NCBI GenBank assembly: GCA_965649765.1
Contig: OZ287760.1
Coordinates: 6,448,001-6,512,000 of the forward strand
Source: Bispira polyomma
Lineage: Eukaryota
Direction: 5' to 3'
Length of the DNA: 64,000 nt
Numbering within the stretch: the stretch's first letter is position 1; each line of letters starts with the position of its first letter. A program made the translations under genes and the position numbers. Shown here in pieces: positions 4,828 through 63,591 of this stretch. The notes beneath the pieces are model-generated. The model saw only the letters and a program-made list of their open reading frames with translations, was not told where the DNA came from and ran no database searches.

Positions 4828-6252
4828 CTACGGCAAGTACCTAAAGAAGCGTCCGTGTAGGACGAAGGGTAATGGTGTGGGTAGATACGCCGTGCTTACT
4901 ACGTTAAATGTTTTACCATCTAGCACCAGTACATAGGACAGCCTGGTAATGCCGTCCAGCACGATACTGGTGATCACCCCGTCATCCTCCTCCTCCTTTC
5001 CACCACTAGCCTCCAACCGGTGGATGAACGTCGGCTCAGAAGGGTAGTGGTTGTGCACGAACCAGTACAGGTCCCTGCCCCGGCACATGTCCTTCTTCAC
5101 GATGGCCACAGTCGCAAAGTCCCCGCGCTGCACGCTAGTTGATATGCCGTAGATGTAGCAGTATCTTTCGAAGCGGTACCTCTCGTTGATCGCTGGTAGG
5201 TCCAGGTACTGGATGAACTTATATTCCGAGGACACCTTCACCGCCTTCACTGTCCCCTCCTTCAAATGGATGGTGTACCTCCACAGACCACAGGTGGTCT
5301 TGATCTTTTTCCGCAGTGTCCCATTCCTCAGCACCGTCAGGTCCATCCGCGACAGGACGGAGGCGTCGGGATACACCGTGTAGTCCGTGATCAGGTAGCC
5401 GTTCTCCTCGTAGCTGTTGACGTTGTGCATGTGGATGCCGGATCTTATGTCTGCAGAGAACAGCATGCGGCCACTCGCCAGGTGGAACACGTGAACACGC
5501 GAAGGCTCTTTGGGCTTCCACTCTAGACTCTCCAGTAGTGTGGCTGCCGTCAGGACCCTTGTCTGGTCAATGTAAAAAGGGTCCGCGATCAGGACAGCGT
5601 AGTTTCTCGAAAGGCCGAACGAGTGCATGTACGGTATTCTGGAGATGGGCAGACTGACCAGCACTTGCCGCTCCTGTAGCACGTTCCCGATGCGGACGAG
5701 ATGCAGCCAGCTTGATCCAAAAGGCAGTGGGTCCCATTCACTCATCACTGTGATGAACGCCGTACTATTCCTGCTGTTGTATTCTCGTATTGGATGAGGG
5801 GAAGACAACTGAGGGATCATGTGGTTAAAGAAAAGCGAGTTGCCGTTGTTGCCAGACAGTGACGGGACTACTTTCTCGGCCGTGCTAAAGTCTTCTCTAT
5901 CCACCCGATACATCAGCCACGTCTCTCCCAAAATGTCAACGGCATCTTCCGTGTTGTTCTCTCGACGGCTCGGAAACCTATAGACATTGATGGCGGGATT
6001 GTCCACATTGTGTATCAGTGCCTCGACTTTGGCGAGTGGGCTCAGCGGAGGATCCGTTGGCGCAAGAAACATATAGGGCACAATGTTTCCCTGCCGCGTG
6101 GATTTGGTGTACGACTCGCTGAGCAGCATCCTCACAGTGAATTTCAGGGAATTCCCTCCGGTGAACTCGACCTTAGTCAGCTTGCCATAGGCGTCGAAGG
6201 CATTGGTGAAGGACGTCGGGCCGAGTTCAAACTGCCCCAGACCCATCTTGAT
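4828..6252 (-). CDS. Carotenoid cleavage oxygenase (BCO/RPE65/NinaB family), exon 2
   Basis: Acceptor TTCACAG|ATC at 6253/6252. All four Fe-binding His motifs are present (SPHP, PYMHSFG, MHNVNSYEE, LHGRF), plus GQFELG..FDA, GETW, PSEP and EDDGVI. Stop at 4828. Confidence 0.93.
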   Translation of the reverse strand: MKMGLGQFELGPTSFTNAFDAYGKLTKVEFTGGNSLKFTVRMLLSESYTKSTRQGNIVPYMFLAPTDPPLSPLAKVEALIHNVDNPAINVYRFPSRRENNTEDAVDILGETWLMYRVDREDFSTAEKVVPSLSGNNGNSLFFNHMIPQLSSPHPIREYNSRNSTAFITVMSEWDPLPFGSSWLHLVRIGNVLQERQVLVSLPISRIPYMHSFGLSRNYAVLIADPFYIDQTRVLTAATLLESLEWKPKEPSRVHVFHLASGRMLFSADIRSGIHMHNVNSYEENGYLITDYTVYPDASVLSRMDLTVLRNGTLRKKIKTTCGLWRYTIHLKEGTVKAVKVSSEYKFIQYLDLPAINERYRFERYCYIYGISTSVQRGDFATVAIVKKDMCRGRDLYWFVHNHYPSEPTFIHRLEASGGKEEEDDGVITSIVLDGITRLSYVLVLDGKTFNVVSTAYLPTPLPFVLHGRFFRYLP

Positions 6253-6695
6253 CTGTGAATGACACAGGAAAATGGATTTGAGCTTATATGGTCATAATAC
6301 AAGTGGCACAAAATTATTTCACGGTTCTTTAGCCATAAAATATGTTTCATACTCAAATATATTTTACATATTCATTTATTATGCCCCAACAGAGAATCCG
6401 GCCATTGGACAGAAGCAGTGACATGACCTTTTGTAAAATATCCAATGGCCTGAGTTGTAATATACTGGGGCATTGAGTGATTTCATTGTGCAAATGTGCA
6501 AATTGTTTTCAACATGGCGGTTTTTAGGTAATGCGTTAGTTTGTTTTATTAAATGACCTCTGTACGTATTTGTTAACCCTCTGTGTAATGCAAAAGAAAT
6601 CTAGCTGTATGGATAATTATATCACCCGACGGCTGTTGGACCGATAAAAATAGTGGGGTTATATTTTTTTCATGGATGTCTAATAAATACAAATA

Positions 6696-9577: not shown

Positions 9578-10372
9578 ATGCCAGCAATCGACAAGAGAGG
9601 AGACTAGGTCATTTTTATTTTGTTTTATTTACAAATATGCGTCCTCATGGCCATACTACAAAAGGAAAGAGACAAGGCTCAGGCTCACGCAAGACAAGAG
9701 GAATTGAGCCCAACACCACCACCTTCACCTTTGGTCCCCCCTGGAGAAGGTCCGCCCTCCAAGAATGTCACCTCTACACTGGGTCTAGCCTATGATCGGC
9801 AGAAGAGAGGCCCTTGGATATTACAGCACCTTAATGCCGGAGTTAAATGAAGGAGATGCACCTGCATACAGGAACTTCTTCAGGTTGCCTCCAGATCTAT
9901 TCCTGGAAATCAAGAAGAGGATCACACCCCATGTGAAAAGAAACACAACCTGATACAGAAAGCCCTTAGATGTGGGACTCTCACCTTGAGGCACCTGGAC
10001 ACTGGGGAGAGTTAGCAATCAAAGGATGTGCAACTACAGAATATCCAGGGGAAGGAGGGTTGTTAAAAATGCCTTTGGAATATTGGTCAGCAAGTTCTGG
10101 GTTTTACTGACAACCATGCAACAACATCCTTTGGTGTCTTCAAACAATATGTTAACGTATGTTATATTACACAACATCTTAAGAAGCCACTGTGAGAACT
10201 CAGCCCGGAAGCACCCAAATCCACAGGATGATCCACCTGAGTCTGAGGAGCAGCTGGTTGGGAATAAAGCGGACAATGAAAACAGAAATCTATCTAGATG
10301 GGCGAAAGGGACACTTTGATGGACTACTTCATAAATGAGGGGGCAGTCCCACGGCGGAACAACAGAATATGA
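9578..10372 (+). pseudogene. PIF/Harbinger transposase (HARBI1/DDE_Tnp_4-like), internally deleted
   Basis: YRNFFRLPPDLFLEIKKRITP..TLRHLDTGE joined directly to NYRISRGRRVVKNAFGILVSKF..LHNILR and C-terminal DYFINEGAVP. The central catalytic region is missing and stops are present. Confidence 0.8.
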
Positions 10373-10453
10373 CAGATAATGTTTTGAAACATTAGGCTGG
10401 CCCTGAAAAGGGCTGATTTGTTTTGATGTTTACACTGTGCTGTGCTGGCAGGT

Positions 10454-11339
10454 TTAGCAGAGGTGGTGCTGAGTTGGAGAAGGTTGCTCTAATGACTGAG
10501 GTGGCGGCTGTGGTGGCTTAGGACCAGGCTGTGGTGTAATCTTATGCTCATAATGTGAAAGTGTGTCTATGCTCTGGTAGCTTATATACGCTGGGCCTAT
10601 GCCCATATTTCTGACCATTGATGACACTGTTGAACTGTTTAGAATGTCTGACTCGACTAACCTGGGGTTGTCTAATGCCAGAATAGTCCCAGTGATACTA
10701 GATATACTAGCTACACTTCCACATGATGTTGGTGGTCGTTGAACTGTCTTGATTGGTGAAGGGTTTGGAGGCTCTGACATCTGTGGTCTGGCTTGTGATT
10801 GGTTGATGTACTGCACATACTGTTGTGGTAATTGTTGCTGCTGTGGGTCAAAAATAGGTGGCCCCATGCCATTGGAGGTACTCAGATGTGATTGAAATGG
10901 TTGATACTGTTGTGGTTGTTGCTGTAAATGGGTAAATCCAACCTCCTGTTGAGCCCATTCCTGTAAGTTACTGACCAGGTTGAAGGCATCTTTCCTGAAG
11001 GTGTTGACAGTTTATCAGTTGCTCTTGGTCCCTTAGGCTTTGGTTTGTAGGCGTCCTTCAGGAAGCCGGCTATCCTATCTTCCGTCCTGGACATGCTGTC
11101 CTTAAAGTCGGCTGCCATTGCATCATGGTGGGTTTGGGTGGATTGCCCTCTATAGGCAGATGACTGTTAGAAAAGTCGGGCTGGTGATGGAGATGGCATG
11201 GACTCCTCCATCTCCAGTTCAGCCTGGTCTGTATTGAGCTGGGAACCTGTTGGTATCTGGGACGTATGACTAGCAGAAACCAAGGCAGATGATATGGACT
11301 TGAAGCCAGATGTTCACTTGATGGATGATGTGAAGCCAC
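10454..11339 (-). pseudogene. Probable Harbinger second (accessory) gene remnant, P/Q-rich
   Basis: Convergent with the transposase, as in two-gene Harbingers. Frameshifted low-complexity ORFs; no Myb/SANT domain visible. Confidence 0.45.
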
Positions 11340-11359
11340 AGGAACTTTAGGGGGGGGGG

Positions 11360-11520
11360 GGGATCTTGGCCTGCCTTTTATCAGAGTTTAATTCTGCTGC
11401 CGATGTCATTGCCACTTTCATATCATTTTCTTTTCTAAAAATGTGACCTGTGTGTTTCCATCTCCATTTTCTTGTGTTGATTAGTAACTTTGTAAGGATA
11501 CATGATAAGGTATTTATTTC
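11360..11520 (-). mobile_element. RTE-type LINE C-terminal fragment
   Basis: RKWRWKHTGHIFRK resembles the RTE WxWxGHxxR motif. Confidence 0.45.
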
Positions 11521-13530: not shown

Positions 13531-14184
13531 TTATTACAGTTTCTGTGGACGTATTAACTAACAATTCTTATACTTAGGATAAGAATTATCTTATTAAACT
13601 TAAAAATTTTGAGTATGCAATAATTTTCTTATTCCTAGAATGAAATGGAATTTACAAAGCACTTCTTAGCCAAGAACTAATTCTTAGAATAAGAATTTTC
13701 TCAGCTAAGAATTGTGAATAGAAAAAGGGGACTAGAGCGGGGGGCAGCACTAGATGTCAGTCCTAAAAGTGACACTAATGGATTGTTTACCCCCTTTTTC
13801 TCCCTTCCAGGTTTTCTCAGGCTAATGACTAATGTTTTCTTTTCAGCTATTATACACCTGCCAACTTGGGCTTCTGCCTATAAAAACCCCTGGTTTTGAG
13901 AGTAAAGGCATCAAAATTCATCTGCCTCTCAAAGTGCTGCTAAAATTTTGTCTCAAATTTTGGGGCTCTACTTCTTCACTACTTTAGCACTTTGAAAGTG
14001 TTTGAGGATTTGGCAGAAATTGCAAACCGTTTTAACTAATTTTAGTGTTTTATTTGTTTATTTTACGTTTTAATATTTCACAAATATCACTGCAGTGAAA
14101 GGAGTTTTAGGTGTTATCGTGTTTATATGTGGAGATTTATGTGTTATAGTGATTATATGTGGTGAATATATGTGATAACAAAAT

Positions 14185-15534
14185 ATGGCTGTCGCTACGG
14201 CCTATTGCAAAAAATGTGGAAAGCATCACCCACGACCTGTGGGTAAAAATTGTGTTCAGGATATAATTAACCAGAGTTCTTCCCATGTGCATGCCCAGGA
14301 TACAGCCGGCCAAGCTACTGGTAGTCACTCAACCAGAAGACGGTCTCGACAGCATGTAGATGCTTCTGTGGCCTCCGATACCTCTCCGCGTCAGTCACAA
14401 GGTGAATCGGGCAAGCTAGACTTCATTATAAGTAAATTGCAAAGTTTGGAGGAGCGTGTTAACGACGTCCAGAGGGAACAAAGGGACAACAGATCCAAGA
14501 ACGTCACTTTTCCAGAGACAAGGCATCGTCCCGGGCGGTTTTCTCCTGACAGAGCTGGGTATGTGCCAGAAGCAAGCGGTCATGCACGTCATAGCTCCCC
14601 CACCCAAGCGGGATTTCATCCTGATAGTCCTGAAGGTGAGGAAGTTTCCATGGCTGATAGAGACTGGGAACGACTGATGGACGACATCGAGTTTGAGCGA
14701 CGAGGGGGCCTGCCTGGTATGACAAGAAGACCTAGGGCTGCTGCTGCTAAGAGAGGACGCCAGGAAGATGCCAGACTTGCAGATACCGGACACTTTGACT
14801 ATCACGATTCTGAGGATTTGCTACTACTGAGCCAACAGTACTTATGCACAAACGACTACATTCAACGCCAAGTCGACGCACGTTTGCAACGTCATAAAAC
14901 CAGGTTGGCCTCCTCACCAGAGGAGTTAGGTAAGAAATTAAAATCAGGTCTACAACGTACAGGTGAACACACCATTAAAAAACACATTAATTGGCCCCAT
15001 GAGCACTGTTATGTTAATTCTAGTAGGAAATACCCGGCATATGAAGAACTGACTCTACTCATGTGGTTTCAGGGTTATTTGCAATGTATGATAGAAGAAC
15101 CGGATAATACAATTAAAGATAACATGATGCAGTACGGGGTTCAGCTCATGAGAGATGCCATGGAAACTTCCTGGTATACTGCTAAAAGCGCTCATTGTGT
15201 CTTACTTCTCGAAATGGAGAAGGGTAAAGTCGATTGGCAGAATCTTAGGGCAGTGTAGGAAATTAGGGCTCGCCTTACTCAGCGTACAATCAAAGAAAGT
15301 ATACGTGATACTCGTGATTCAAATGTCTCAAAAAATAAGGGCAAAACTGTACCCTGTACTGTCTATAACAAGGGAACCTGTACTCAAATGGGGGATCATA
15401 TGTTTGCAGGTATGACCTTGAAGCACGGTTGTGCAAAATGTTTCAACACTAATAAAAAATTCAGTGCTCACAGGGAGATCAATTGCAAGGGGTCGGAAAA
15501 CAGGAAAAGCCTCCAGCCTACCCCCAAAAAATAA
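14185..15534 (+). CDS. ORF1 gag-like protein of YR retrotransposon (one in-frame TAG at 15256)
   Basis: N-terminal CKKCGKHHPRPVGKNC; core GKKLKSG..WPHEH..YEELTLLMWFQG. The frame continues past the TAG into a C-terminal Cys/His cluster (CTVYNKGTC..H..HGCAKC..H..C) and ends at TAA 15534. Confidence 0.8.
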
Positions 15535-15913
15535 AGATCAAATCAAAAACTTTTTGGAACAGAGCTTGGCTGGAGGCATTTGCTAAAACAAAAAATTCTA
15601 ATGAAACAAAAAATTTAAATTCTCAAAATGAAATTTCTGTGGGAGCAAAACAAGGAAAACAAGGTGAGGTCATGGAAAAACAAAAATTCCCGCCCACCAC
15701 TACCCTTATAATTGATCCTAAAGTCGTAAACAATGTGTCACAATGTCAAAAACTTTTTGTTCAGAAAGTATGTTCAACAAAACAACAAATACCGTCTCCC
15801 CCCCCTAGAAGGGGGGATATTGTTGCATCACCTGTGTTTCCAATTAAAAAACAAAAATTCCCGCCTACCACTACCCTTACAATTGATCATAAGGTTGTAA
15901 ACAATATGTCAGA

Positions 15914-17146
15914 ATGTCAAGAGCTCTGTGTTCAAAAAGTATGTCAAAACAAACAACAAATCTCGTCTCCCCCCTGGTAGGGGGGATATTGTTGTATTAC
16001 CTGTGTCTCCAATGTCAGAATTGGTTCAATTATGTTCTGCTGTTCAAACAGTTAAACCTCGGGGCAGCCCCCCCTCAATTAAACCTAAAAATGACATTTG
16101 TGCTACAAGGCACTCAACCAATAACAAACAAAAGTTTGTCAAGACAAAGGAAAATTTTGGGTTCATGTGCTTATACAAGCCAGTGTACATACACAAATGA
16201 TATCAAATATACCACATTGGGAGAATGGGCAATGTTGTCAAATGCAAGGGTTAATCAGTACGGTTGCCCTAATTATCTGGGAGCTAGGCTGTCAGTCCCC
16301 TCAGAATTAAATATCTCTGCATGGCGAAATTTGTTAAAAAACGACCCTGACGTCTTATTGCCTGAATACTTAGAATTTGGCTTTCCATTGTGTATACAAA
16401 AAGAAGGATTTGTGTTTAACTCTGTAGCCAAAAACCATGATTCAGCCATACAAAACCCACAGAGTGTAGATCAATATTTTATTACAGAAAGACTTCACAA
16501 GGCCATAGCAGGCCCATTTCAAAATAAACCATTTCAAAAATTGCATTTCTCACCAGTTATGACCAGACCCAAAAGTGACAACACTCGAAGAATTATAGTA
16601 GATTTGTCATGGCCGCATGACAGTTCCTCTGTGAATAATGCCGTATTAAATGGGGTGTACGATGCACATGACTTTCGCCTTACTCTTCCAAATATTGATA
16701 TGTTAGTTGAAAGAATTAATGACCTTGACCCTGATTGCCTATTGTACAAGGTCGATTTGTCCAGGGCGTTTAGAAATTTACGCATAGACCCTGCCGATTA
16801 CAATTATGCTGCCCTTAAATGGAACAATCAGACATATATAGATCTATCGGTCATGATGGGCTACAAGCATGGCACGGCTCTTTGTGAAAAGGTCACTGAC
16901 GCATTACGTCGAAACATGCTTAGCAAAAATTATCACATATACAACTACATCGACGATGTATTTGCGGCTGAGAAACCCAATCAAGCTGAACAATCATTTG
17001 ACACCTTATATGCGCTTATTGAAAACTTGGGTCTTCCAATAAACCCAAATAAAGTGGAAAAACCCACAGAATCAATTACCTGCATGGGTATTATAGTAAA
17101 TGCGCGCATGGGAATTTTAACAATCCCCCCCACAAAAAATGAATGA
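15914..17146 (+). CDS. Reverse transcriptase of YR retrotransposon
   Basis: RIIVDLSWP, LYKVDLSRAFRNLRIDP, YIDLSVMMG and YNYIDDV motifs. Frameshifted at both ends. Confidence 0.92.
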   Translation: MSRALCSKSMSKQTTNLVSPLVGGILLYYLCLQCQNWFNYVLLFKQLNLGAAPPQLNLKMTFVLQGTQPITNKSLSRQRKILGSCAYTSQCTYTNDIKYTTLGEWAMLSNARVNQYGCPNYLGARLSVPSELNISAWRNLLKNDPDVLLPEYLEFGFPLCIQKEGFVFNSVAKNHDSAIQNPQSVDQYFITERLHKAIAGPFQNKPFQKLHFSPVMTRPKSDNTRRIIVDLSWPHDSSSVNNAVLNGVYDAHDFRLTLPNIDMLVERINDLDPDCLLYKVDLSRAFRNLRIDPADYNYAALKWNNQTYIDLSVMMGYKHGTALCEKVTDALRRNMLSKNYHIYNYIDDVFAAEKPNQAEQSFDTLYALIENLGLPINPNKVEKPTESITCMGIIVNARMGILTIPPTKNE

Positions 17147-17870
17147 CATACGTGAGCTATGCCAACAATGGCAAGGGCGTTCAAAATGTAATAGAAAACA
17201 ATTGCAATCGTTACTAGGAAAACTCCTCTATATCCATAGATGTGTCAAACCTGCCAGACTTTTCCTTAATAGAATGTTGGCATTATTACGTGACTCCTAC
17301 CCCAGTGTTGACATAAATTTAAATGATGATTTCAGGCGTGATCTTAATTGGTTCTTGGTCTTTCTACAATCATTCAATGGGGTTGTGGAAATGCATACAA
17401 ATAATACCCCCAGTCATGAAATGTTTGTAGATGCCTCCCTCACTGGAGTGGGGGCGGTGTACAATAACAATGTCTATGCAGCCACTTACACAGTCAACAA
17501 GCCAATTGGTTTCACCATTGTGCATTATGAAATGTGGAATGTCTTAGTGGCGCTAAGGAAATGGGGCACATTATGTCAAAACACAGTGTTAAACATATGG
17601 TGCGACAATTTGGCAGTAGTCCAAACAATTAACTCAGGAAAAATCAGAGAAAAGTTCCGGCCCTTATTGCTAGAGCAATATGGCTTGAAGTTGCCATATA
17701 TAACATAAAGTTGACTTTATCTCATGTACCCGGAACAAATAATGTCCTGGCTGACTGCCTTTCTAGAATGTTCTCTCCACTGCCAATAAAGCCAAATATC
17801 TTAGCACAATTACAGGGAAAAAATTGGTGTACCATTACTGATCAAGATTTCACTCCAAATTATAATATTC
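17139..17870 (+). pseudogene. RNase H (DIRS1-type) of YR retrotransposon, frameshifted
   Basis: LQSLLGKL, FVDASLTGVG, IVHYEMWNV, WCDNLAVV, then in another frame HVPGTNNVLADCLSR. Confidence 0.88.
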
Positions 17871-17890
17871 AGTATATTTCACACTTGCAG

Positions 17891-18849
17891 GTTCACCAAA
17901 GGAAACCTATCTACACTCAGCTGCCTTAAAAAGACTACCTCATGCATTTACAGAAAAGACCCTCCATTCCTATTCACAGTGTATTAGACTGTACTTAGCA
18001 TTAGCAGTGTCATTGTCAGTACGGGATTATACCACAATCAAATTCTTATTAGTCTACCTAGCACAACAGGGACTTAAACCTCCCTCCATCCAAAATTATA
18101 TTGCTGCAATAAAGTTTCACTTCCATTTATGGGGTGTTTCCACCCTTCCATTTCAACACCTTCAAATAAAACTGTTCATGAAATCACTTACACTCTCCAC
18201 CCCTTATAACCCAAGATTGAAATCAATTATCTCAATCCCCATACTCAGGGACATTATCAACCAATGTGACTCTTTTCATCATGCACACGTATACCAAGCT
18301 ATATTTCTAATAGCATTCTTCAGCTTCTTTAGACTTTCCAATCTTGTCCCTTCTTCTTTCTCAAATTTTGATCCTATTAGACATCTTACAGTTCAAGACC
18401 TCATCTGGGGTCATCCTGGTGTACACATCATTCTTCAATGGGCTAAAAACCTTCAACGTTATAATCAGTTTCATGTAGTCCAACTCCCTTTCATAAAAAA
18501 TTCCTTATTATGTCCTATGACTGCTCTTCGTGTCATGTTACACATCAATAAAACTAAACCTTCATCCCCTTTGTTTACTGAGACAGAAAATCCACATGTA
18601 CCCATCACTCAATATAAAGTGAGAAAAGTGTTATGAGACATCATATTACGACTCAATTTAAATCCACAAGCTTTTACATTTCATGCATTTCATCGCTCGG
18701 GTGCGACTTTTGCTTTTGAAAACAACGTTGACCTCCAATCCATCATGATTCATGGAGGTTGGCGCCCTCAAGCCGTCTGGGCTTACCTCAATTCAACACC
18801 CAATGCTGCTGCCACAGTGGCTACTTCACTTCGAAATATCCTACAATAA
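17891..18849 (+). pseudogene. Tyrosine recombinase (in-frame TGA at 18634)
   Basis: FFSFFRLSNL, WAK, FHAFHRSGAT (the Arg of HxxR replaced by His), HGGW and AVWAYL; stop at 18849. Begins at a splice acceptor with no ATG. Confidence 0.88.
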
Positions 18850-20819
18850 CCTACAACACCAAGTCTGGGCTCTTTGGGGCAATCTTTCTTTACATTTATA
18901 CGTTTTTATACCAGTAATTTGTTATTTATATGTTTTATCATTATCTTTTATTGTTAATGCTTATACATTGCATGTGCTTCAATAGAATATTTAATGCAGC
19001 ATGTCCTTACTTACATTAACTAATCCATGCAGCTGTGTTAGTTATAAACTTGCTTAGTATTACTTCTCTAAAGCAATTACACTTAAATGCAAGTATATGC
19101 AGTTCATAGTTAAGTACATGATACAAACTTAACTTATGTGAAAATAATAGGATTGTAACTATTGTAAATGTTGTTATTAAGTACAGTTAAGTGCATTAGT
19201 GATTAGCTTAACTGTGATGTTACGTATTATTTTCTATCAAAACCATGTACATAGAATAGTAGTAGATTACTAATTTTAGTTATGTAGATGTATTAAAACT
19301 AATAAAAACCCAAAGAGTGCCTTTTTAATGACTTGGTGTTCCTCTGCCTTCTCACTCAAACTCACACCTTAGGAAGTGGTGATTCATATTGTAGATACTT
19401 ATATTTCAATGGAACGTACATGGACTGCACGTATGTTTTGTGATAATGAAGTGACTACAATATTCTCATCTCCAAACATGGAGAATAAGACATTAGTGAA
19501 TACCAAAATTATTATATGTAGAATTATTCTTAGAAATCTAAGAATAACAGGAATTTTAAGAGTAGGAATGTTTTTGAAATAGGTCTCATATCTTCTTGGT
19601 GAAGGTGATGCAAATATCCAACTCCAGCTTTAGGAAATCTAAATGGTTTATAAAAATGAATAGTCATCAAATACAGAAGAATGCCATGTCTTTTTCTCAA
19701 GTTAAGTTAACTTAAGGTCCTGACCATTCTTAGAATCAACAATCATTCTTCGCAAAAAAAAGTTAAGAATAAGAATTTAGTATATTAATATTCTTGTACT
19801 TATAATTATTATACTTACAAATCCTAGGTTTTATAAGAATACGAATGTTAGTGAATACAGCCCCATTAGTCGAAGATCAGTTTCACAAAACCGGTTTTAC
19901 AAATTGAAAAAAATGACCCAAATCAACATCTTTTGGCTGAGAGGGTCACTTTAAGGTTTCTAAGTGTGAGTATCAACGATTTTAAGGAAATTCAAAGCAG
20001 GCATTTTAAGGTCACTCGTGTGAATTTTAAGGTGTATTTATTTTCGTATTTGTTAATTCAGTCTTAATTTGTGTAAAACCACCATTTAAAATTGGCACTT
20101 GTGAGCCATTTTAGTAGGTTGAGGTAACCTCCATTTTCACGGTGTCATTTCACATTAGTCCGTTTTAATTTTTAGTCCATATGTTTATATTCAGGTAAAC
20201 AAAAAGGTAAAGCTAGTTTGTCCCAAGGTCACGCAGTATAAAACATACTAGAGTGACAGTTAGAGAGGAGGTGGTGTTTACTGTGTGTATGTGTCTTCTT
20301 TTTCTGGCACGCCCCATAAATTATAATTGATAATTACACCCTCTCCTCTTGCTCATGTCTAGGTCTCACTTGTTTGATTTTTGGGAAAAAAGAAGACTTT
20401 CATGCGGGAGTGAGCGCTGTAGAGAAGTCGGTTGCACATATTTGTCCTGTGGTCGAGTTTAGAAGCTGCATCCAACTATTTTTCTGATATAAATATAAAT
20501 ATATATGTAAACACATTATGGATAGTTCACATTTTCAAGACTGTCCATGTGTAGCAGATACCCTACTTATTATGTGTGTTGTCTTTAAGCAATCTCACCA
20601 AAGGAAATCGTCTCTCCACCTGTGAATTCTTAGAAAGTTCTTACCCACAAAACTGGCTGGTTCAAAACTACTGAGTAGAATAGTGTCCCTTGCCAGTCCT
20701 CGCACTGACACATTGATTCCAGGCTTCAGGAAAAAGCTCAAAATACATCTGTATCAACCCTCTTTTCCGCCTCAACATTCGTCTGCTGGTTACGACTGAA
20801 CTCTGATCACACATCTTCA

Positions 20820-22520: not shown

Positions 22521-24330
22521 ATTTGTATTATTTACAGGTCTTTGCGCATAGATCGTCTATAATCATAGGATGGTATTCTGCACTACCACATGTCTGTACT
22601 GTCTGTACTTTGTCTAGACGCACCTTACTAGAATAGCCACTATTCTGAAACACCCTAGGATGAATTATATTGGATGCCCCGCCAGTGAAGGATACATTAG
22701 GTTTAGTTTTATGAAACATTAGGTTGAGTTAAGTGATTTCCCAGCCTGATCTAGCTTTAAATTTCTAAAAAGTTTGAGAATATGTAACGTCCCCCTGAAT
22801 TTCACTGGCAAATGCATCTAAGTACCTTCGTTTTATTATGTTTTAGATGGGTGGCTTTGTTTAAGAAAACAATTAGGTTCTGCATGAGTCCTTATAAAAA
22901 GCTTGACCATCATAAAGCAATAAGCACAAGCAAGACGCAGTGTGGTATTGTCCTCTATGTGGTCATTGTCATGCGTGCAATGACCCCTGTTGAAAAATTG
23001 ACAAGGCATAGCCGGTTTTTAATTTGTTTTCGTAAAACTTTGAAATGGTTGTACGGCCCTCTGAGTATATCGAGCCCTTAACACACTAACTGCTTGAAAA
23101 TCAGCCCAAGATAGTTTACCTTTCTCTATCTCTAAAAGGAAAATTTTGTGAGCTGTTTTGGTGGTAAACCACTTTGTCTCTTGGGCGTCTTGGAACAAAT
23201 CCTGACAATGTCTGAGCAAATTCTCCCTAACCCCATAATTTGATTCAGAAAGAACATATCCAATAAAGCCCTGAAAATACTGCAAAGCAGGGAGGTCATC
23301 ATAGGCAATAGTAAAATTATCCGACCCAAAACAATGCTCATGCTGCCAACCGATTTTTTCGTTTTTTAACATTATTATCACCATTTCTAAATTAGCCCGA
23401 TTTGATCTTTTTACTTTGAGCTTCTTGTTTGTGACTATCGTCTAGCACTTGTAACTGACGATCAACTTGCCTTTGTAAGGCCACATTATCATGCAAGAAC
23501 GCTGTTGAAGGTACCACCAATCTGTCAGTACTCTCAGCGTCAAGAGCAGAGTAGCCTGGAAGCCGAGGCGCCGGGTCCGGAACATAGCCCAGACGAGGGG
23601 GAGATGTTACAGCCAAATCACCACATTTAATAAGGTTTAAGTCTTTCTGGGTATCAGTCCTTACCCGTTCAATTTTGTCATCAAGTCTAGTTAAATGCTT
23701 AAGAATAGCATTAAGGTTATCTTGTACCGGGTTACCTTCCTCAGAGTGTAGAGAGGGGGTGTAACGTGCAGCAGGAGACGTCTGAAGAGGAGTGATGGAC
23801 AGCTGTGGTTGGGACATCCGTAGTTGACTACCAGCGGGATCCTCCATAGAATCTGATGACACAGCAAATGGGCAATGGTTGCCTACTGGCTTCAGATGTG
23901 TAATACTGCAGTTGAAACAAAATGCGGTTTTCTTAGCAGTTCGCTCAGGCTTTTTTAAAAAACAGTGACAATGCACTTAAAATAGTTGCTTAGTAAAAGC
24001 ACGTACTGACGGTGGACTTTCAATTCACCATACCGTGGCACTAGGACAGAGCACTAGATATCATATATCCAGTCTTCAATCTCCCCTACGCACTGGAGAA
24101 TACTCTCACTAACCACTAGTTACTACACTTCCCAGAAGTGTTTCCAAATTAATAGCAGTTGTCCACAATCCCCATGCACAGGGACACCATGGTCACAATC
24201 ACAACTCAGTAGTTTAATGGTTGTCCGTACAAAGTACACAAGGCTTTCCGTTCTGGAAATGCCACAGTCAAGTACAAAGTGCTTTAAAGGAGATACCAAT
24301 ATGAGGTAAGTGAGTTATGAAAGTGTGAGT
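22520..24330 (-). mobile_element. YR retrotransposon copy 2, 5' portion only (ORF1 remnant)
   Basis: CFNCSITHLKPVGNHC, LQRQVDRQL, SKKIKSG, WQHEHC, YDDLPALQYFQG and AHKIFLLEIEKGKLSW, all homologous to ORF1 of copy 1. Confidence 0.82.
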
Positions 24331-24914
24331 TAGTTCTAGTTAAACTTTTGTTGAACTTTTTACAAAAGGATTTGATACAAAATGACCAAATGTGGCCACC
24401 CTGTCCGAGTAGTTCTTATAGAGTTGATACCATTTATATCAAAGGTACTAGTACATTATGACAGGATACATAATGACCAAATGTGGCAAGCGTCTGGTTT
24501 GAACTTCATATCAATGGTTCCAGTACATTATGAGAAATTATTATACAGATAATACGAAATATACATATACTACACAACTCCTGTTGAACTTTATATCAAA
24601 GGTTCTAGTATATTATGACCAAATGCTGGCCACCCTGCCAGAGTAATTCTTGTCAATTCTCAGACAGTTCTGTCCCTACACATCAGACAGTACATGCTGT
24701 CTATTCACAGTGAACTGTTCACACTATCAAGTAGCCCATAATAAAAGCTACAGAACCATGCTATAGCCATACATAATAAAGCTATAGCATAATAATACAG
24801 AATAAATTTTACTGTACAACCCAGAGCTATCTACCAACACCCCGACTGAACATGACTGTGGCCATTCATGCCTCAATGTTGTCTTAAGGTTTTTTCAGGA
24901 GTTGGCACCATTTC

Positions 24915-25915
24915 TCATTTTTTTGATTTAATGAGTGATTTCAGAATCTGTGAATCATTTGAAAGCTGAGCAAAACAACTGACCAGACGTGCCAATGAGT
25001 TCTGGATGCATTGCAAATTCTTTGGGTCCTTTTTGGTCAAGCTGCGATACAGTGAATTGCAATAGTCCAGTCTGCTACCAACCAGAGCATTTGCTGCAGT
25101 TATTGCAACCGGTTTTGGAAGGTACCTCCTGATTCTCCTAAGGTCTCTAAGACCCATGAAGCATGACTTACACACTGATTGGATATGACTGGAAAATGAA
25201 AGATCACTGTCAAACAAAACTCCCAGGTTCCTCACTTTATCAGTTGGGGATAACAGTGTCCGAAGAATGTTTGCAGGAAAAGAATTTGACAATTCAGCAC
25301 GTTGAGTGCCCGACCCAAACAATATGAATTTGGTTTTAGCAGGATTCAGCTTGAGCTTATTTAGTGCCTTCCAATTTTGAACATCTGCTAAGCATTTCTG
25401 AAGTACTTCCAGGGCACCCATTGATGTGTTACGAGTAAGCTGCACGTAAATCTGTGTATCATCTGCATAGAAGTGATACTTCAGAGAAGAATAGGCGGAA
25501 ATAATTTTGCTTAGGGGTGTTATGTGCTGATTGGTAGGTGTTTTCTAGGCTGAATTTTTCAAGATGACTATTGAGCTGTTGGGCGACAACCCGTTCTATC
25601 AATTTTTGAGATGTAGCATAGTCCAGATACAGGTTAATAATTTTGTAAGTCGTTTTTTGGTAAGGAAGCCTTCTTTATAAGAGGAGTGACAACAGCCCTT
25701 TTCAACTTTGTTGGAAAGACACCCTGAGCTAAGGAATTGTTAACCAGTTTGGTTATTGATGGGAGAAGAATGTCCACACATTCCTTTACAAGGAAAGTGG
25801 GCCAGGGGTCAAGCATGCATGACTTATTGGGGGAACCGAACAGGATTTTTTTAACATTGTCTTCAGTAACTGAATCAAATTTACAGAAATCGCTTGGAGC
25901 CATATCAGGTAGGAC
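24915..25915 (-). mobile_element. L2/CR1 LINE RT fragment
   Basis: KSCMLDPWPT, AVVTPLIKK, YHFYADDTQIY, NKLKLNPAKT and SRLDYCNSL. Confidence 0.88.
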
Positions 25916-29500: not shown

Positions 29501-32500
29501 TTCAAGATTGTTTCCATTGTTTTCAGCTTTGTATCATAGTTCAAATGTCTGGATAATTTTAGATTTGTTGAAAACCATATTCCCAATGTTTTAAAACTGT
29601 TTTGATTGATACTGATTTTGTCTATAGTTTTTGGTAATGTTATACTTTTAAATTTACATGTACCAACAGGAATTGCCTCGGTTTTTTCCATATTGACTTT
29701 TAGACCAGAACAGTACTCAAATTTATGTAAAAGTGATATTAATTGAACAATGGATTCAATGTTATTTACAAATATTGTTGTATCATCAGCTAGTTGACAT
29801 ATTTTTTATACTCTCTTTTCTATCTTTATACCTACTATATTCTGATTATTTCTGGTTATTTCTAATTTCTGCAACCAATATAAAGAGGAACGCTGATATT
29901 GAACACCCTTGTCTTATACCTCTACTTAACTCAAAAGTAGTTTGAAAAATAGCCATTATTACCAACACAGGATTGTATTTTTGTATATAGTATTTTCATC
30001 CATTGCAAAAAACTTGACCCAAAATGAAAAGATTTTAATGTTCTGAAAAGGAATGGCCATTTTACACTGTCAAAAGCTTTTTCAAAGTCAACAAGAATAA
30101 ATACCCAGGTATACGTTTCAAATCTGTGAAAGACATAACATCTTCATTAAGTCTGACATTTTCTCCTATATATCTATCTTTAATATATCCTACCTGATCA
30201 TTTTGAACTAACTTTGGTGATATTGTTTGTAATCTATTGGCTAAAGCTTTTGTTAATATTTTGTAGTCTGTATTTAACAGATTTACTGGCCTCCAGTTTT
30301 TCAAAAAGTGTAAATCTTTATTTGGTTTAGCTATAAGATTTAATATACCTCTCTTTTGATCATTTGTCAATGAACCGGTATCAGAAGAATATTTATAACT
30401 GTCAAATAGTAAATATTTAATATCTGGCCAGAAAAATTTATAAAAATTTGATGTGAAGCAGTCACTTCCAGGAGATTTGTCATTTTTTAATTGATTCAAT
30501 GCCTTTCCAATTTCTTCAATGGTCAACTGTTTATCACATGCTTTCTGCTCTAGTTCATTTAACTGTGGTATATTGTTTTCATTTAAGAATTCTTTGTAAC
30601 TTTCCTGTTCATCTGTAACCTTTTTGGAATATAAATTATGATAACATTGTTTTTGTTCTTCTAAAATTTTATCTGGTTCTATAATTTCTGATGAATCATT
30701 TAATATCAATTTTTTAATATATTTCTGATTGAAATTTCTTTTTTCTAAATTTAAAAAGTACTTTGTGTTCTTTTCGCCCTTTTCTGCCCATTGTACTTTT
30801 GATCTAAACATTACCCCTTCTGCTTTTAGATTTTCTAACTGTTCCCATTCACTTTTTGCTTTCTTATATTCATTGAGATTCTCATGGTTATCTCTTAAAT
30901 TTCTTTCGAAAATATCTAATTTTTTTATCAAATCTTTTTCTCTTTCTTTGTTCCTTCTTGCCTTAGATATACTATAAGATATTGTGATTGTCCTTATCTG
31001 GCATTTTGTAAAATCCCATAGGGTGTTCTTGTTTTGCAAACTATTATTTAGTTTTGATTTCTTCTATTTCTTTTTTAATTAAAGCTATATAAATTTCATC
31101 CTCTAATAGTTTATTATTAAACTTCGAATACCCTTATTTGGTATTAGAATTGCTACCCCTCTACTTTGGCTAGTGCCATGTGAAAAATATATATCTCTGG
31201 TCTGTATGGTCTTTTGTTGGTGCATATATATTGACCAATAATAAAGGATGTCCATCAACTGTACAATCTATGATAATGCTCCTACCTTCCTCGTCAGAAA
31301 TAACGTTGAATACTTTCACTATATCACTGATTTTATTTGGTATTAGAATTGCTACCCCTCTACTTTGGCTAGTGCCATGTGAAAAATATATATCTCCTTC
31401 CCACTCAGAAGCCCATTTACCTTCATCAGATAACAGAGAATGTGTCTCTTGTAACATTGCTACACCACTGTTTCTAGATTTGAACCAATTGAACATGGTA
31501 TGTCTTTTATTTGCATCCCTTGGCCCCCTGCAATTAAAGGAGTTGATAGATATTTTATCATTAAGTAAGCTCATTTTTAATAATATACGGCTCAGTGCAT
31601 TTCATTAGATAAAGTACAGGTTGTATCATCAGAACAGTAATATTATAAACTAGACAATGTATAGGTATACGACTTTTTGGCACCACAGACACATTTTTTT
31701 CTAATTTCAATTATCTTATTTCCATCAGAACAATGGCATTTTTTTTTTTTTTTTTTTTTTTGGGGGTGGGGGTGGGGGGGGGGGGGTCCTTACTATTAGT
31801 ATTTTACTTCTAATTATAGTGAGCTGTGAACCAAAGTCAACAAATTATTTTATACATATTCACGTTTCAGTTTAACTACAAATCTACAAGTCTTTGAACT
31901 TAGTATTTTACTTCTAATTATAGTGAATTATAGTGAGCTGTGAACTGTGAACCAAAGTCAACAAATTATTTTTTACATATTCACGTTTCAGTTTAACTAC
32001 AAATCTACACATTATAAATTATAATAGTTATTTAAATACTACTTTGTCTTCATGACTCACAGTAAACACATTAAAAGTTTGTTTACTTCTGCTTTGAATT
32101 AGTATTATGTTTTGTATCCGTATCTTACAAACTTTTACTGATTTTCAGAAAGCTGGCATTTATGCTTGTATACATAGACACCATAGTTATTTTCGATAGG
32201 CTTTTTACATGTTTTGCTATAGCTATATTGCTGCGGGGTGCAAATTGGTGTCTACATATGTATTTGGCCTGAAGCAATATATTTTTATATTCTATATTAA
32301 TGATATACAGTAGTTACCAAGACTTTGTTTTTTTTTACTATAACTATGCTATATTAGGTATATTTAACCCATTAGACTAAGTATAAAAAAGACCTCAACC
32401 ATCTAGTATATTTATCAATGCTAGCACAATTATATATTATCAGTACATATGACTTATGTAAATGTCTGGTGTTTTGACAGTTGTAAATATTCCTAGTTTA

Positions 32501-42354: not shown

Positions 42355-42840
42355 GAATTGGTTTAAAAAAAGGTGTGAGCAAAACACACATATAAACTTT
42401 GGATTTGATTCAGGACCTAGTAACAAGTGGTTTCGGGAGTTTAAGAAGAGGCATTCCAACATAAAATGGGAGGTGCCTCAAACTCTGGATCCGAGCAGAG
42501 CATCCCAGAGTGATGAATAGACGATAATAAAGTTTTTTTAACTTGCTAGGTAACTGATTCCTTATAACACAATATTTCCCTTAAATATCAGTTGAACTGC
42601 AGAATATTAGCCAACAGGTCATGTTTCTTAATTATTTTGACACAAATACTTTTTCAATATTATGTCCACTCAATATGTTCAACAAATATAGGAATATGTG
42701 TACCGAATAATACATATTAAAAAGAAAATTATTTGTGAACACTACAGAACGTGTTCTGAAGAAAAATGGCATTATGGATGTTGCAGGTAAAATATTCAAC
42801 TGTGGTGAAAGTGGCGTTAACAGTCATGTGCAAACAAGTT
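42355..42840 (+). pseudogene. pogo/Tigger-like (CENP-B HTH + DDE_1) transposase remnant with an intron
   Basis: GPSNKWFREFKKRH..PQTLDPSRA, donor CTAG|GTAACT, acceptor TACAG|, then IFNCGESG (the IxNxDETG motif with D to G). Confidence 0.7.
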
Positions 42841-43020
42841 TGGACCTTTATTGGCTTTCACACAAATGAACACTGATTTAAATTGTGCAATCCTATACAC
42901 ATATATGTACTGTTTGAAAAAAATGTCATGTTTCTTAATTATTTTGACACAAATACTTTTTCAATATTATGTCCACTCAATATGTTCAACAAATATATTT
43001 TTCGAACCAAGTTTGATTTT

Positions 43021-44497
43021 GTCAGCGATCCAGAATCCTGTGAACAGGCTGCCACCTGTTACACAGAGTACGATTTTGATACGATGCATGGACTATCTGT
43101 CACGGATCAGTCAGGAGAGCGTCCCAGCAGTTCCTATTGCTTCTGCTACACCACAGCCAAGGGCTCCGTTTGTACCTGTTGCTGCTCCAGCTCCAGTGTC
43201 TGCTTTACCTACATTTTGGATGGCATCACCTTCTGGGGTGATGACCCAAGTTATTGCTCTACCAACTAGGCCTAGCGAGGTTTTTATGCCTTTGCCTTGA
43301 ATGACTGGAGCTAGGCATACTTTAGTTGACTCACCTTTTGGGGTGAATCGACCTGAATATGGTTATGTCCTTCCCGAGTTCGCAGCTGTCAGTGCTGCTG
43401 TAGGGTCACCCTTTGAGGTGAGGAACCCGTCTGCTTTTGAGTACACTTCCACTCCGAGACAGTCTATAGTTTCACATACTACAACTCTCGCGCCAGTGGT
43501 ATGTTCTTCTCATTTGATGACCTTTATGTCCACTGGTGTCGTACAGACTAGTTGTGTGCAGAGTACCTCAACTACAGACAGTATAATTTCTCCTATACTT
43601 GCGATCCCTAGGATCTCCACAGAAAGTTTGGGTGAGGATTTAGGTGGAGTAGAACAGAAACAACAGCATTTGAAAGTGACCTTAGACAGTACAGGTACTC
43701 CTGATGATAGTGTGGCTTTTGAACAGGAGGATGAATGGGACGATCCAAGGGTGCAGGGTGCATCAGTGATTCACCCAGATGTAGGATTACCATTTCACCA
43801 CCAAATTGCACCGGAAGTCTTACTTATTGGCGCATGGTAATTGCTATTATGAATGCTGTGGGGATTATGAGATTGGCTAGTGATCCTTCCGCATCAATGC
43901 TTGGTTCATCTCCTCATGCGGAGATGATTGATAGTCATACTCATGTATCAGAAACCCGTTTGAAGTATGTGAAGATAGCTGCTTTGATGAACGTTTACTG
44001 TTTTCTGGATAAGGAAAAGTTTCTGTCTGAGGAACAAGCAGTTAAACAACCGGTGGGGAACAGTTCACCTGTTTTCCAGAATTTCGGAGAACATCCGAAA
44101 GTGTGCAACAAATGCAGTCAAGAAGCTTTAAATGCTGTTAATGCAGCAAGTCGGTATCCAGCCTGTGTGGCTTTTGGAGAATTTGGGTTGGATTACTCTA
44201 GTGAGAATCACAACAGGAAAAGTCAGAAGGACATGTTGAAAGAACAGTTATTTATAGCAAACAAGCGTCTTTTGCCTGTGATCATCCATTGCCAGGATAG
44301 AGCGTGCCGTAGTGAGGCTTTCGACGATTGCCTTCAGATTTTGTCTGAAAGTTTGTTATCAGCACATCCCATTTATCTGCATTGTTTCACAGGGGAAAAC
44401 AGATTTGTAAAAATTGGCTAGCAAAGTTTCCCGCAATGTACGGTCTACTCGTCTTAATGCGGAGGCATTTTTTAGATTGGCAGGGAAATTGAAATAG
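43021..44497 (+). pseudogene. Intronless ORF with low-complexity N-terminus and C-terminal TatD-like metal-dependent nuclease; degenerate
   Basis: TatD motifs IDSHTH, AFGEFGLDY, LPVIIHC and IYLHCFTG. After a frameshift/deletion comes the terminal helix STRLNAEAFF and stop TAG at 44497. In-frame stop at 43298 and frameshift near 43790. Confidence 0.82.
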
Positions 44498-45554: not shown

Positions 45555-46740
45555 TTTTTTTTTTGTTTTTTTTTAATGTGTTTTTTTTTTAATTGTCCTC
45601 AGTAACAAAGTAATACAAAAAAAGAAAAGAATAAAATACACTGTTTTTAATACATAGAATACATCAATTTAACTTTTTTTGTGTTATGTTGTTACAGTTA
45701 ACAACTCATACATTTAAGAACAATTTCGTCCTCCTGACTACACTAACTAAACCACTGTTTTACAGTAAATTCAATGTTACTTTCACACCAATCAACACAA
45801 GTTACAATTTTGTCATTCAGGCACTTTTCTTTTAATTTACAAAGAGAGATTGACTCCCACTTAGTCCAATAAGTCTTAAATTTATTTATCAAAATTATTT
45901 ATCAAATTCATCAAGGTGAAGCGCTTTTAATTTAAACTTTCAAGGCCTTCAAGGAGAGTCTTCCATTACGATGTATGGAATCAAATATGTACTTCTTTAC
46001 TGTCAAAATTAAAGCAATCATAAGGACATTATTTGGGTGGTTCAACTGGTAGCCGAAGATTATTGTGAAGTCAGAAAAATTAACTTTAACTTTCAGGAGA
46101 TCATTTATATGTTCTGCGATAATTTTCCAAAACTTTTTTGTTTCGGAGCACTCAACAAACATGTGCATCAAGGTTTCATTTTCCCTGTTGCATCTGACAC
46201 ACTGTGTGTCCTCCACAACATTTAGCTTCTTTAGATAGTTTCTAGTAGCTGTCAATCTATAGATTATTTCAAGTTGAAACCAAATCAGCTTGTTATTAGT
46301 AACTGTCTTAAAACATATTCTAAATATTCCCCTCCAAGTTCTATTATCAATGTTTATTTTCAAGTCAATATTCCATTTTAGTTTCATGTTATGATTGTTG
46401 TCATCATTTATTACGAAGTCTTGTGCACCTTTGCTAGATTTATACAAAATTGTCGAATGACCAGGGATGAAGGGTTTTTTAATTACCGGTATGTGACCTG
46501 TGTTTTTGCTTTTTCTTTTGATATATATGCATTGACATTCAGTTTCATTTGATAATATTGTAAGAGATTCTAGTTATCAACTCTGTAAATATCTTTTAAT
46601 TCATCTAATGTTAAGAAAGAACCCTGTTGATTCAAAACATTGGAATTTATTGATATACCATTTTTAAACTATTCTGGAAGAATAAGGGTCACACCAGAGA
46701 TTTCACTATTAAACCATAAAGGGCTTGTCAATGTATCCTG
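45555..46740 (-). mobile_element. L1/Tx1 LINE 3' fragment (zf-RVT)
   Basis: WFQLEIIYR..CVRCNRENETLMHMFVEC..KFW; poly(T) near 45555. Confidence 0.85.
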
Positions 46741-47409
46741 TCAGTGTACGACGCTTGATCATCAATTCCCATAAATTATAAATTTCTAAAGTTTATGAAT
46801 TTTAAACTTTTATACTCCTCAGCTGTTGTTAAAAAGAAAAAGAAGAAGCAGTCAGTAATTTGACAGTTAAGAAGAAAATTTTTTGAAAAAATAATAATAA
46901 TTTGTGTGTGAACCAGGTATCTGTACTTTTTGTAAATCACTGTGTTTTAGTTATATTCATAACAAATTACTGGCCATGGTAAAATGCAATTTTGAATCAA
47001 TGCAAAGAACTAGGATTATCTATGAATTTTCACATTTTCCCAGAAGAAACCAAGAACATATTTCTTTGTAACATTTATGAAAAACCACTATGCAATTTTC
47101 GGATGCTCTGAAAGATAAACAGATCAGTCCTATATAGGACTAAAGAGAAGTTGGTATGTCACTGGAAATGTTGATTTCCAATTGTTTGGACTGTTTCACC
47201 TATATTTCATGGATTAAAATAAACACAGTCCCCATTTGCAACTAGTTTGACGAATGAATAGTTTTTACAAAATTTTGTACCTGTTTCTGCTTTTCTACAA
47301 CCCCACATAAAATGTGATAAGGACATGCTATATTACGAAAGAGTATTGGCGCCACATTGTAGTGTTTTAAAATATCACATTTGTGTTGTTGAAGTTCAAA
47401 ACTTTAATA

Positions 47410-47790
47410 CTTCGCTGAAAACTTCAACAATACGCTAAAAACTTCAACAATATGCTAAAAACGTCAACAATACGCTGAAAACTTCAACAATACACTGAAA
47501 ACTTTACCACTACATTAAATACTTCAACACTATGCTGAACACTTCTTTAACAATACGCTGAAAACATATCATAAAGTTCTGGGAACAAGATAAAGTTATG
47601 GGAATGATATAATTATTTTGTTAAACGAGATAAAGTCGTGGGAACGAGATAAAGTCCTGGGAACGAGATAAAGTTGTGGGAATAAGATAAAGTCGTGGGA
47701 ACGACATAATCCCAAGGGAAAAAGATCATCTTGAGGGAGGAGATGATCTTGAGTGAATGAGATGATCGTGATAGAACAAAATTATCTTGA
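47410..47790 (+). repeat. Two subterminal tandem arrays (units about TACGCTGAAAACTTCAACAA and GGGAACGAGATAAAGTCGT)
   Basis: Directly visible tandem units of about 20 bp. Confidence 0.9.
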
Positions 47791-52135: not shown

Positions 52136-52792
52136 AGTATTGAACTTCAACAACACAAATGTGATATTTTAAAACACTACGATGTGGCGCCAATACTCTT
52201 TCGTACTATAGAATTTAAATAAATTTTGTCTTAAAAGAAGAGAGTTCGAGTGTTTATTTGACATTTATTATATATTGCAGACTTATTGCAAAATATTTAT
52301 TCAAACAGTCAACTAATGCTTGTCATCCATGCAGTTTTAATATAATGGAACTTTGGTCCAAAATTGTTCTAAACTCCTAGTAATTCTCACCTCGTTTGAT
52401 CTTATTTGACAAGAGGCATTTTACATTTTGAACAAATGTTCCCTATTTGTCCAACCAAAATTGTCTTGTGGTTATTTCCCCCACTCTCTGGACAACATAT
52501 ACATGTGGTACTCTAGTTTCATATTTGATGTAAATGAAGTTTTAATGCAGTTCATTCGGTTCATTATAGCACCAATACTTCTTTAAAGTTTGATATTTGT
52601 TCAAGAATATACCATTGTTATAATATTCGCAATGATAATACTGGAATGTATTGTTTTTAGTGCAAATGTGCTAATTGAACAGAAACCAGTGATACAAATC
52701 CATTCCCAAAATATGGAGTCCTCAGGACGCGACCATTGCTCAAAATTGGTTTGTTTGTCTGAGTGTCCTGTATTGAATCTCTTGACTTTACT

Positions 52793-62900: not shown

Positions 62901-63591
62901 ACCCGTAAACCCATTGGAGCAACGACAGGTCATCATATGTGGGCCTGGCTTTTGAACAAGAGGATAATAAGTGATTATGGAGCCAGTCTGCAACTCGTTT
63001 ACATTCACATCCGCCTTATCTCCCCTCTGGGATTTTAGTTTACCTTGGGGGTTCTGGTTCAGGGTTTTTAGTTCGGTGAGCCACTGCTCTACCTGAGTTT
63101 AAATTTGTACATTTTGTACTAAGAACTCGACGCCAGGTACAATGTTATCATTACCATCACCCACAGGGCCACTTTCAAAGCTGGCAGAACTATTTCAAGA
63201 AACAGAAACGGGGTTACTAGCATTTGTACTGTTGAGCTTTTCTGTCACCACTGCCTCGGAAGGCCTGATTCCCAACAGTGCAGTCCTTATCCGTAGGTTT
63301 CTCATGGTTTTTCAAGCATTTTGAGCACAAATACACTTTAACCGGAGGCATGACTGGTGTAAGTTTGACAATGTAAAATACAAAAAGTTAAAATGACTAT
63401 GTGTAATTTCAGTGTGCCACGCATGTATTAAGTTTTAACTACTTGTTGTTCTGCAAACTTTGAAGGAGCGGCAAAAGTAAGTTTTATAGCCGTTGATTTT
63501 ATAGTCCTCCCTCCCCCCCCCCCACCCCCACCTCACGATTAGCTTGGTATCCCAGCACTGAATTAGATATCGCCGAGGCGTTACCCCATAC
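56915..63591 (-). mobile_element. YR retrotransposon copy 3, Ngaro-type with split direct repeats; degenerate
   Basis: ORF1 from ATG 63351 (CSKCLKNHEKPTDKDC; PQGKLKSQRG); RT HNYIDDF (60763-61020); RNase H NKVTDLLSR; YR at 60050-59400 and 58545-58430 (HWTWTSDCIWRYI). Repeat A at 63438-63591 and 57705-57852; repeat B at about 57855-58424 and about 56915-57065. Confidence 0.88.
58549..59400 (-). mobile_element. L1/Tx1 LINE 3' fragment inserted in the YR gene of copy 3
   Basis: Poly(T) at 58549; minus-strand QYKILFNI and ETIYHVFCEC-like remnants; YR coding sequence lies on both sides. Confidence 0.75.

Follow-up and report, generated by a model that had tools for sequence, protein, structure and literature searches.

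How does a retrotransposon express a tyrosine recombinase (YR) whose reading frame is closed upstream and offers no early start codon? The question is raised by a decayed Ngaro-like YR retrotransposon copy at 13727–19427 on the forward strand of the window analysed here, a 64,000-nucleotide (nt) stretch of Bispira polyomma DNA (assembly GCA_965649765.1, contig OZ287760.1, positions 6,448,001 to 6,512,000). The copy is laid out as A1–ORF1–pol–YR–B, where A and B are repeats and ORF stands for open reading frame (Table 1). Its YR frame is closed by TAA at 17863–17865 and has its first in-frame ATG at 18178. An initial annotation of the window had proposed that a splice fuses the N-terminal zinc finger of ORF1 to YR, from a donor TTAG/GTAAGA at 14929/14930 (the slash marks the cut) to an acceptor TTTCACACTTGCAG/G at 17890/17891, and these coordinates proved correct. 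Counted from ATG 14185, exon 1 comprises 248 codons plus one base and thus ends in phase 1; each site splits a Gly codon behind its first base, the donor in ORF1 and the acceptor in the YR frame. The predicted join 14929^17891 is in frame, as annotated, and extends over 567 codons to TAA at 18847–18849. In a single copy, a lone GT and a lone AG might have arisen by chance; the family-wide comparison presented here shows that they have not. This comparative evidence supports the annotated reading: splicing very probably removes the remainder of ORF1 and the entire pol gene, so that YR is translated from an RNA in which it directly follows the N-terminal half of ORF1.

Donor and acceptor across the element family

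We searched the host genome (1.035 Gb, with spliceosomal introns) for YR sequences. The searches listed 386 matches, 100 of which were fetched with flanks, picked mostly for intact YR frames of varied length and blind to splice sites. Together with both window copies (the element above and a distant one, copy 3) and the metagenome locus L091, they form a comparison set of 103 loci, here numbered with the prefix L, which group into 48 subfamilies at 85% YR identity (27 at 75%) and three deep clades with ~35–43% YR identity between them (down to ~35%). Donor counts omit seven subfamilies without a usable ORF1 anchor, acceptor counts omit one without a YR N-terminus, and the four-codon window for the acceptor was fixed after a first pass over the loci.

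Aligning family members, a check that the initial annotation had named, yielded a conserved G/GTA donor and a conserved TTNYAG acceptor. The donor stands in phase 1, 2–12 codons ahead of the KS motif of ORF1, in 39/41 subfamilies and 85/89 loci; the count of G/GTA is zero in either other phase, and control windows contain it in 22 of 354 cases. The residue following the donor Gly varies (K 30, N 4, T 3, I 2) and every one of its codons is A-initial, while the control Gly of the nearby KSG is encoded by GGG 11, GGT 10, GGA 5 and GGC 4 times. In L091 (45% YR identity), where both sites are present, the GK codons read GGC AAA and a CAAG/GTAATT donor lies 8 codons further upstream. Because A-initial codons persist across residues, the KSG Gly codons are mixed and the L091 donor is displaced, the constraint at the donor acts on nucleotides. 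The GK motif, which had been suspected to reflect splice-site constraint in part, is by this codon comparison largely a splice-site footprint. In the model of L036, a locus of a young sister family, the donor falls within a predicted disordered linker that connects a conserved helix to the C-terminal core (predicted local distance difference test score, pLDDT, <50 at residues 231–248). Copy 3 carries the donor CAAG/GTAAAC at 63044/63043 (minus strand) as annotated; its ORF1 is frameshifted on both sides of this donor, and the acceptor place reads TTGTAC (~60064–60059, minus strand), with no AG.

At the start of YR, a phase-1 AG is found in 46/47 subfamilies (96/100 loci). All 46 acceptors read TTNYAG, with T at −6/−5 and a pyrimidine at −3, though the search asked only for AG. 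Immediately ahead of the junction, seven different residues are encoded, every time by a codon ending in A; where the residue is Ser, the codon is TCA in 22/22 cases, compared with 15/40 (RRSG) and 9/29 (KSG) among control codons, a mixture indicating that silent sites had time to change. At donor and acceptor alike, silent codon positions stay fixed even where the encoded residues differ. Upstream of the acceptor, a branch-like YTRAY motif occurs in 31/46 subfamilies, where shuffled sequences gave a mean of 20.3 and 0/500 shuffles reached 31. The family shows the features of a U2 intron: a GT donor, a YAG acceptor, a pyrimidine tract, a branch-like motif and a maintained frame, with predicted intron lengths of 2096–3441 nt in the 37 subfamilies that have both sites. 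Introns of the host chaperonin gene (11/13 exon pairs solved) are ordinary GT–AG introns with the same site pattern; since only 5/11 of them have TT at −6/−5, the element acceptor represents a strong version of the host acceptor.

Could these motifs simply follow from constraint on the protein combined with AT-rich codon usage, with no splicing involved? Both G-K and the hydrophobic-small-G residues at the acceptor could be selected as such, and the acceptor-like sequence of 7 distant metagenome loci coincides in part with conserved pol codons. Yet the constraint lies on third codon positions and persists through residue changes, the donor Gly floats over 2–12 codons, control codons are mixed, and L091 has parted its donor from the GK codons altogether, so that we regard this explanation as scarcely credible. 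Those distant metagenome elements (L094–L138; 25–33% identity) show a phase-1 AG at the start of YR in 13/14 cases by eye and no conserved donor in the five ORF1s checked; because of this and of the pol-codon overlap, they were left uncounted. They also carry TGA-C at the boundary between ORF1 and pol. Among database YRs from other animals (30/120 matches aligned), the translated acceptor pattern appears in 19/20 of those with an upstream extension.

Competing routes into the recombinase

The published proposal for Ngaro, by Poulter and Butler (2015) as quoted in an excerpt of PMC13003380, is that YR is probably translated through programmed frameshifts, and according to part of PMC3783388 the Ngaro YR may be in frame or frameshifted. 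Applied to this family, the proposal would have YR translated from unspliced RNA, with a programmed frameshift or readthrough of the stop where pol ends. The pol stop lies 22–50 codons past the AD-x-SR motif of RNase H in 38/48 subfamilies (the other 10 unresolved), and a small −1 overlap is indeed the commonest arrangement: relative to pol, YR is in frame −1 in 19, 0 in 11 and +1 in 8 of the 38 resolved subfamilies. The entry for L031 in this tally is probably wrong because the end of its pol is damaged; on manual inspection, YR of the window family lies in frame −1 and overlaps pol by 7 nt. In the young L036 family, YR follows pol in frame with one TAA between them. Against this route, all three frames occur, a slippery heptamer is present in 2/18 overlapping −1 cases, in-frame stops between pol and YR lie mostly outside a leaky context, and in L091 334 nt separate the pol stop from the acceptor. 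It also explains neither splice motif, and we judge it highly improbable.

The boundary between ORF1 and pol is organized differently. All subfamilies with a −1 overlap there (7/7) have G_GAA_AAC or A_AAA_AAC; pol is in frame behind a stop in 10/20, of which 8 read TGA-C or TAG-G, and 3 cases in +1 are unresolved. Such heptamers and stop contexts are of kinds that favour recoding. A stem follows the heptamer with a z score of −3.49 in the window (15495–15579) and −2.27 in L036 (2961–3045), and is not clear in three other boundaries folded. The occurrence of G_GAA_AAC, A_AAA_AAC and in-frame TGA-C or TAG-G across subfamilies indicates that the mode of Gag–Pol recoding switched more than once within the family. 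A conserved CCTCCAG near the end of ORF1, considered as a second acceptor serving pol, turned out to be one arm of the frameshift stem.

Several observations weigh against splicing of ORF1 to YR. (i) The acceptor is absent in 1/47 subfamilies (L069) and the donor in 2/41 (L058, L181), and subfamily counts are not independent owing to kinship, so that binomial values overstate the case. (ii) The Gag–YR junction is predicted from DNA comparison, and the pairing of donor and acceptor from their agreement in phase. (iii) An in-frame ATG lies at most 25 codons upstream of the acceptor in 17/46 subfamilies and, with a 30-codon window, in 8/10 of one clade. (iv) No spliced genomic copy was found among the 103 loci, and 0/159 DNA matches in four young families begin at the acceptor; this would be expected equally if spliced RNA were excluded from reverse transcription and if there were no splicing at all. 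(v) No fused ORF1–YR protein occurs among 268 retrieved proteins, which is weak evidence because the libraries consist mostly of gene calls on DNA contigs.

Candidates for spliced products resolved otherwise. Four loci with open frames >450 amino acids (aa) among the 386 listed matches (L052, L071, L072, L206) are not ORF1–YR joins, and the long database proteins, two from length-shifted searches and two more from a profile search, are all gene calls joining reverse transcriptase (RT) to YR. IMG/VR contained no relative. In three sequencing runs of unrecorded kind from one study, no joint at the predicted junction was seen among the joints shown for L036 and for the window, the latter having 44 more joints beyond those shown. 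Contigs from these runs extend over the whole element with its repeats and have the appearance of DNA, so that they have no bearing on expression.

If the sites are real, they might still be paired otherwise, the acceptor with another upstream exon or the donor with another acceptor, yielding a short Gag, while YR would be initiated separately in those subfamilies that have an upstream ATG. The phase-based pairing and the ATG count given above leave room for this, and YR may be initiated independently in the clade in which eight of ten subfamilies have such an ATG. On the YR tree, however, the upstream ATG requires 13 changes against a shuffled mean of 15.5–16.8, and it often falls within the last codons of pol or a branch-like CTAAT motif. 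In 20/46 subfamilies, the window's included, the 30 codons upstream contain no ATG and the first 25 residues no Met, and the modelled YR fold begins with its first helix at residue 3 past the junction (pLDDT 92). ORF1 is the sole gene with a conserved start, both sites are in phase 1, and a conserved TTNYAG at the start of pol was not found (4/20, scattered). We therefore consider alternative pairing unlikely. The initial annotation had named an in-frame ATG or frameshift route into YR as evidence against its proposal: no conserved frameshift, readthrough or ATG route was found, and the ATG in 17 subfamilies partly counts against the proposal for those subfamilies. The splice from ORF1 to YR itself is backed by conserved phase-1 sites in three deep clades; the zinc finger is not its common part, since ORF1 of one whole clade begins without it, and all predicted fusions retain two predicted helices instead, a coiled-coil-like one and the one ahead of the donor.

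The window copy, its class and its surroundings

The gene content and repeat layout of the family fit a Ngaro-like assignment. Ngaro-like elements are defined by a gag-like ORF, RT/RNase H and YR on one strand, split direct repeats and no methyltransferase (MT) (parts of PMC13465315, PMC3266345 and PMC6681497). Pfam returned RVT_1, weak RT_RNaseH or RVT_3, and Phage_integrase, the last with a SAM-like N-terminal domain in L036, and no other domain, including DDE integrase or protease; four pol proteins gave no MT match, in agreement with the pol stop close behind RNase H. Split direct repeats A1...B1 A2 B2 are found in L036, L040, L041, L042, L035, L054, L063, L070, L197, L204 and L210. A DIRS1-like assignment was rejected on the direct repeats, the lack of long inverted arms at the termini and the lack of an MT domain; for PAT-like elements, which combine split direct repeats with a DIRS1-like pol including MT (part of PMC3266345), the repeats fit but MT is absent. 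ORF1 has no Pfam match and, modelled for L036 at pLDDT 62.9, no fold match at E≤0.001; it is a putative Gag by its position and its C-terminal Cys/His fingers, which fit. Rfam gave no match.

Table 1 Features of the window copy and of the donor of copy 3 (window coordinates)
Feature	Position	Strand	Basis
Ngaro-like YR copy	13727..19427	+	blastn against sister copies L031, L034, L036; split direct repeats in L036, L040, L041, L042
5′ direct repeat A1	13727..13947	+	pairs with both A copies of L036
ORF1, gag-like in its position and its C-terminal Cys/His fingers, with a premature TAG at 15256	14185..15534	+	
Predicted exon 1	14185..14929	+	exon status predicted
N-terminal CxxC..H..C motif, inside predicted exon 1	from 14206	+	
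Coiled-coil-like helix, inside predicted exon 1	14413–14472	+	
Conserved helix, inside predicted exon 1	14857–14898	+	
Predicted splice donor TAG/GTAAGA, phase 1, in predicted disordered linker of ORF1	14927..14935	+	G/GTA in 39/41 subfamilies
Predicted intron, 2961 nt: C-terminal half of ORF1 and entire pol	14930..17890	+	predicted
Predicted −1 frameshift signal for Gag–Pol: G_GAA_AAC heptamer and downstream stem	15495..15579	+	heptamer in ORF1 phase
pol (RT and RNase H, without MT), frameshift-broken	15501..17872	+	RVT_1; intact sisters RVT_1 and weak RT_RNaseH
Pyrimidine-rich tract and predicted acceptor TTGCAG/G, phase 1	17870..17890	+	TTNYAG in 46/47 subfamilies
Predicted exon 2 encoding the tyrosine recombinase, with its first Met 96 codons in and a premature TGA at 18634	17891..18849	+	Phage_integrase and SAM-like domain in L036
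3′ repeat B	18874..19427	+	pairs with both B copies of L036
Donor CAAG/GTAAAC of distant decayed copy 3, acceptor lost	63038..63047	−	

The window copy is dead, with premature stops in ORF1 and YR and frameshifts in pol; the TGA in YR sits upstream of the catalytic H-x-x-R and Tyr motifs. Its young sister family (L036; 79% YR identity, at least 15 near-identical copies) is built from A1 (217 nt), ORF1 (435 aa), pol (742 aa), YR (328 aa), B1, A2, a 570-nt unique stretch and B2; no ORF of the SGNH type was seen. Young copies begin with GGGGG and end with GGACT. The tail of A2, unique stretch and B2 is absent from the window copy, and likewise L031, L034 and L037 have A1 and a single B. Such copies may have arisen when the two B repeats recombined, or when the circular intermediate was resolved at its second B–A junction. 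Within the variable N-terminal region of pol, the window copy shares a tandem duplication of 170 nt (~15676–15974) with L031 and L034. Another high-copy repeat houses the element (13600–13724 and 19428–19800), and contigs of the sequencing runs join both flanks. Head-to-tail or nested YR elements occur at L093, L095, L096, L099 and L050; there, the next ORF1 comes directly after YR, and a young copy is inserted into an older one.

Elsewhere in the window, copy 3 (59500–63400, minus strand) is a distant, heavily decayed YR element at 27–34% identity; further frames lie near 10–11 kb and 23 kb in the minus-strand stretches 9900–11400 and 22900–25900. RT-like or long minus-strand frames at 24915–25544 and 30062–31063 and a zf-RVT match at 45932–46573 are further retroelement remains. 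A single long exon at 4828–6291 (minus strand), GC-richer than its surroundings and with an acceptor-like CACAG ahead, matches RPE65/carotenoid oxygenase (E 1.3e-58) and is probably a host gene. A TatD-related DNase frame (43735–44421, plus strand; E 2e-25) lies behind two frames at 42821–43840. Tandem-repeat blocks at 47300–47750 and 51280–52220 (19–41-nt units), inverted and 3.6–4.7 kb apart, resemble the ends of a foldback-type DNA element.

A predicted Gag–YR fusion and known systems

In the expression scheme that we propose, one transcript starting from repeat A1 would be either left unspliced or spliced by the host spliceosome. Unspliced RNA would supply Gag, Gag–Pol (by −1 frameshift or stop readthrough) and the genome template. 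Spliced RNA would yield a fusion of the N-terminal part of Gag with YR, Gag(N)–YR. Its predicted length, computed for 13 copies, is 458–583 residues in all but L062, which has a broken ORF1 start. At a guess, the retained Gag helices could tag YR for assembly and so carry it into the particle; more speculatively, loss of the C-terminal core and fingers might keep the fusion from acting as Gag. That Gag(N)–YR splicing is ancestral and general in animal Ngaro-type elements, replacing the frameshift model, with an integrase that is a Gag-tagged fusion co-assembling through its helices, is a wider proposition to which we give even chances.

The comparison provides exact and conserved coordinates of a predicted junction for YR expression, hitherto left to a guess of frameshifting. 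If the proposed splice is used, (i) YR has so far been annotated without its N-terminal half, (ii) an element copied through RNA retains an intron spanning its own polymerase, (iii) host splicing controls the balance between genome RNA and integrase, and (iv) a way is suggested in which an integrase outside Gag–Pol enters the particle.

A close parallel is the env gene of retroviruses and errantiviruses, where there is a single promoter, a spliced subgenomic RNA removes pol for expression of the 3′ gene and Gag–Pol arises by −1 frameshift or readthrough. Env splicing keeps at most a few Gag codons, whereas the splice predicted here keeps 137–258 ORF1 codons, and the 3′ gene encodes an integrating enzyme instead of env. 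We found no report of a spliced Gag–YR product in the literature, a search whose scope did not extend to the original reviews and Repbase notes, where a prior mention is possible; parts of PMC7192593, PMC9341512, PMC9210276, PMC10294476, PMC4157794 and PMC8547959 contain none. In plant Ty1/Copia elements, conserved alternative splicing of the retroelement RNA to shGAG likewise sets the ratio of the element's proteins (part of PMC5580714); there the spliced RNA makes Gag only, whereas here it would make a Gag-tagged recombinase. The YR model (pLDDT 89.7) is Cre-like, matching Cre over its whole length (E 2.9e-9, template modelling score about 0.65) at ~15% identity; unlike the predicted Gag(N)–YR, Cre is translated from a start codon of its own and lacks an N-terminal partner of this kind. 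With Ngaro-like elements of the DIRS order, the family shares the gene set on one strand, the A1...B1 A2 B2 repeats and the lack of MT. YR of these elements is thought to be reached by frameshifting (quoted in PMC13003380, as above), whereas the conserved splice sites described here point to a predicted Gag(N)–YR fusion.

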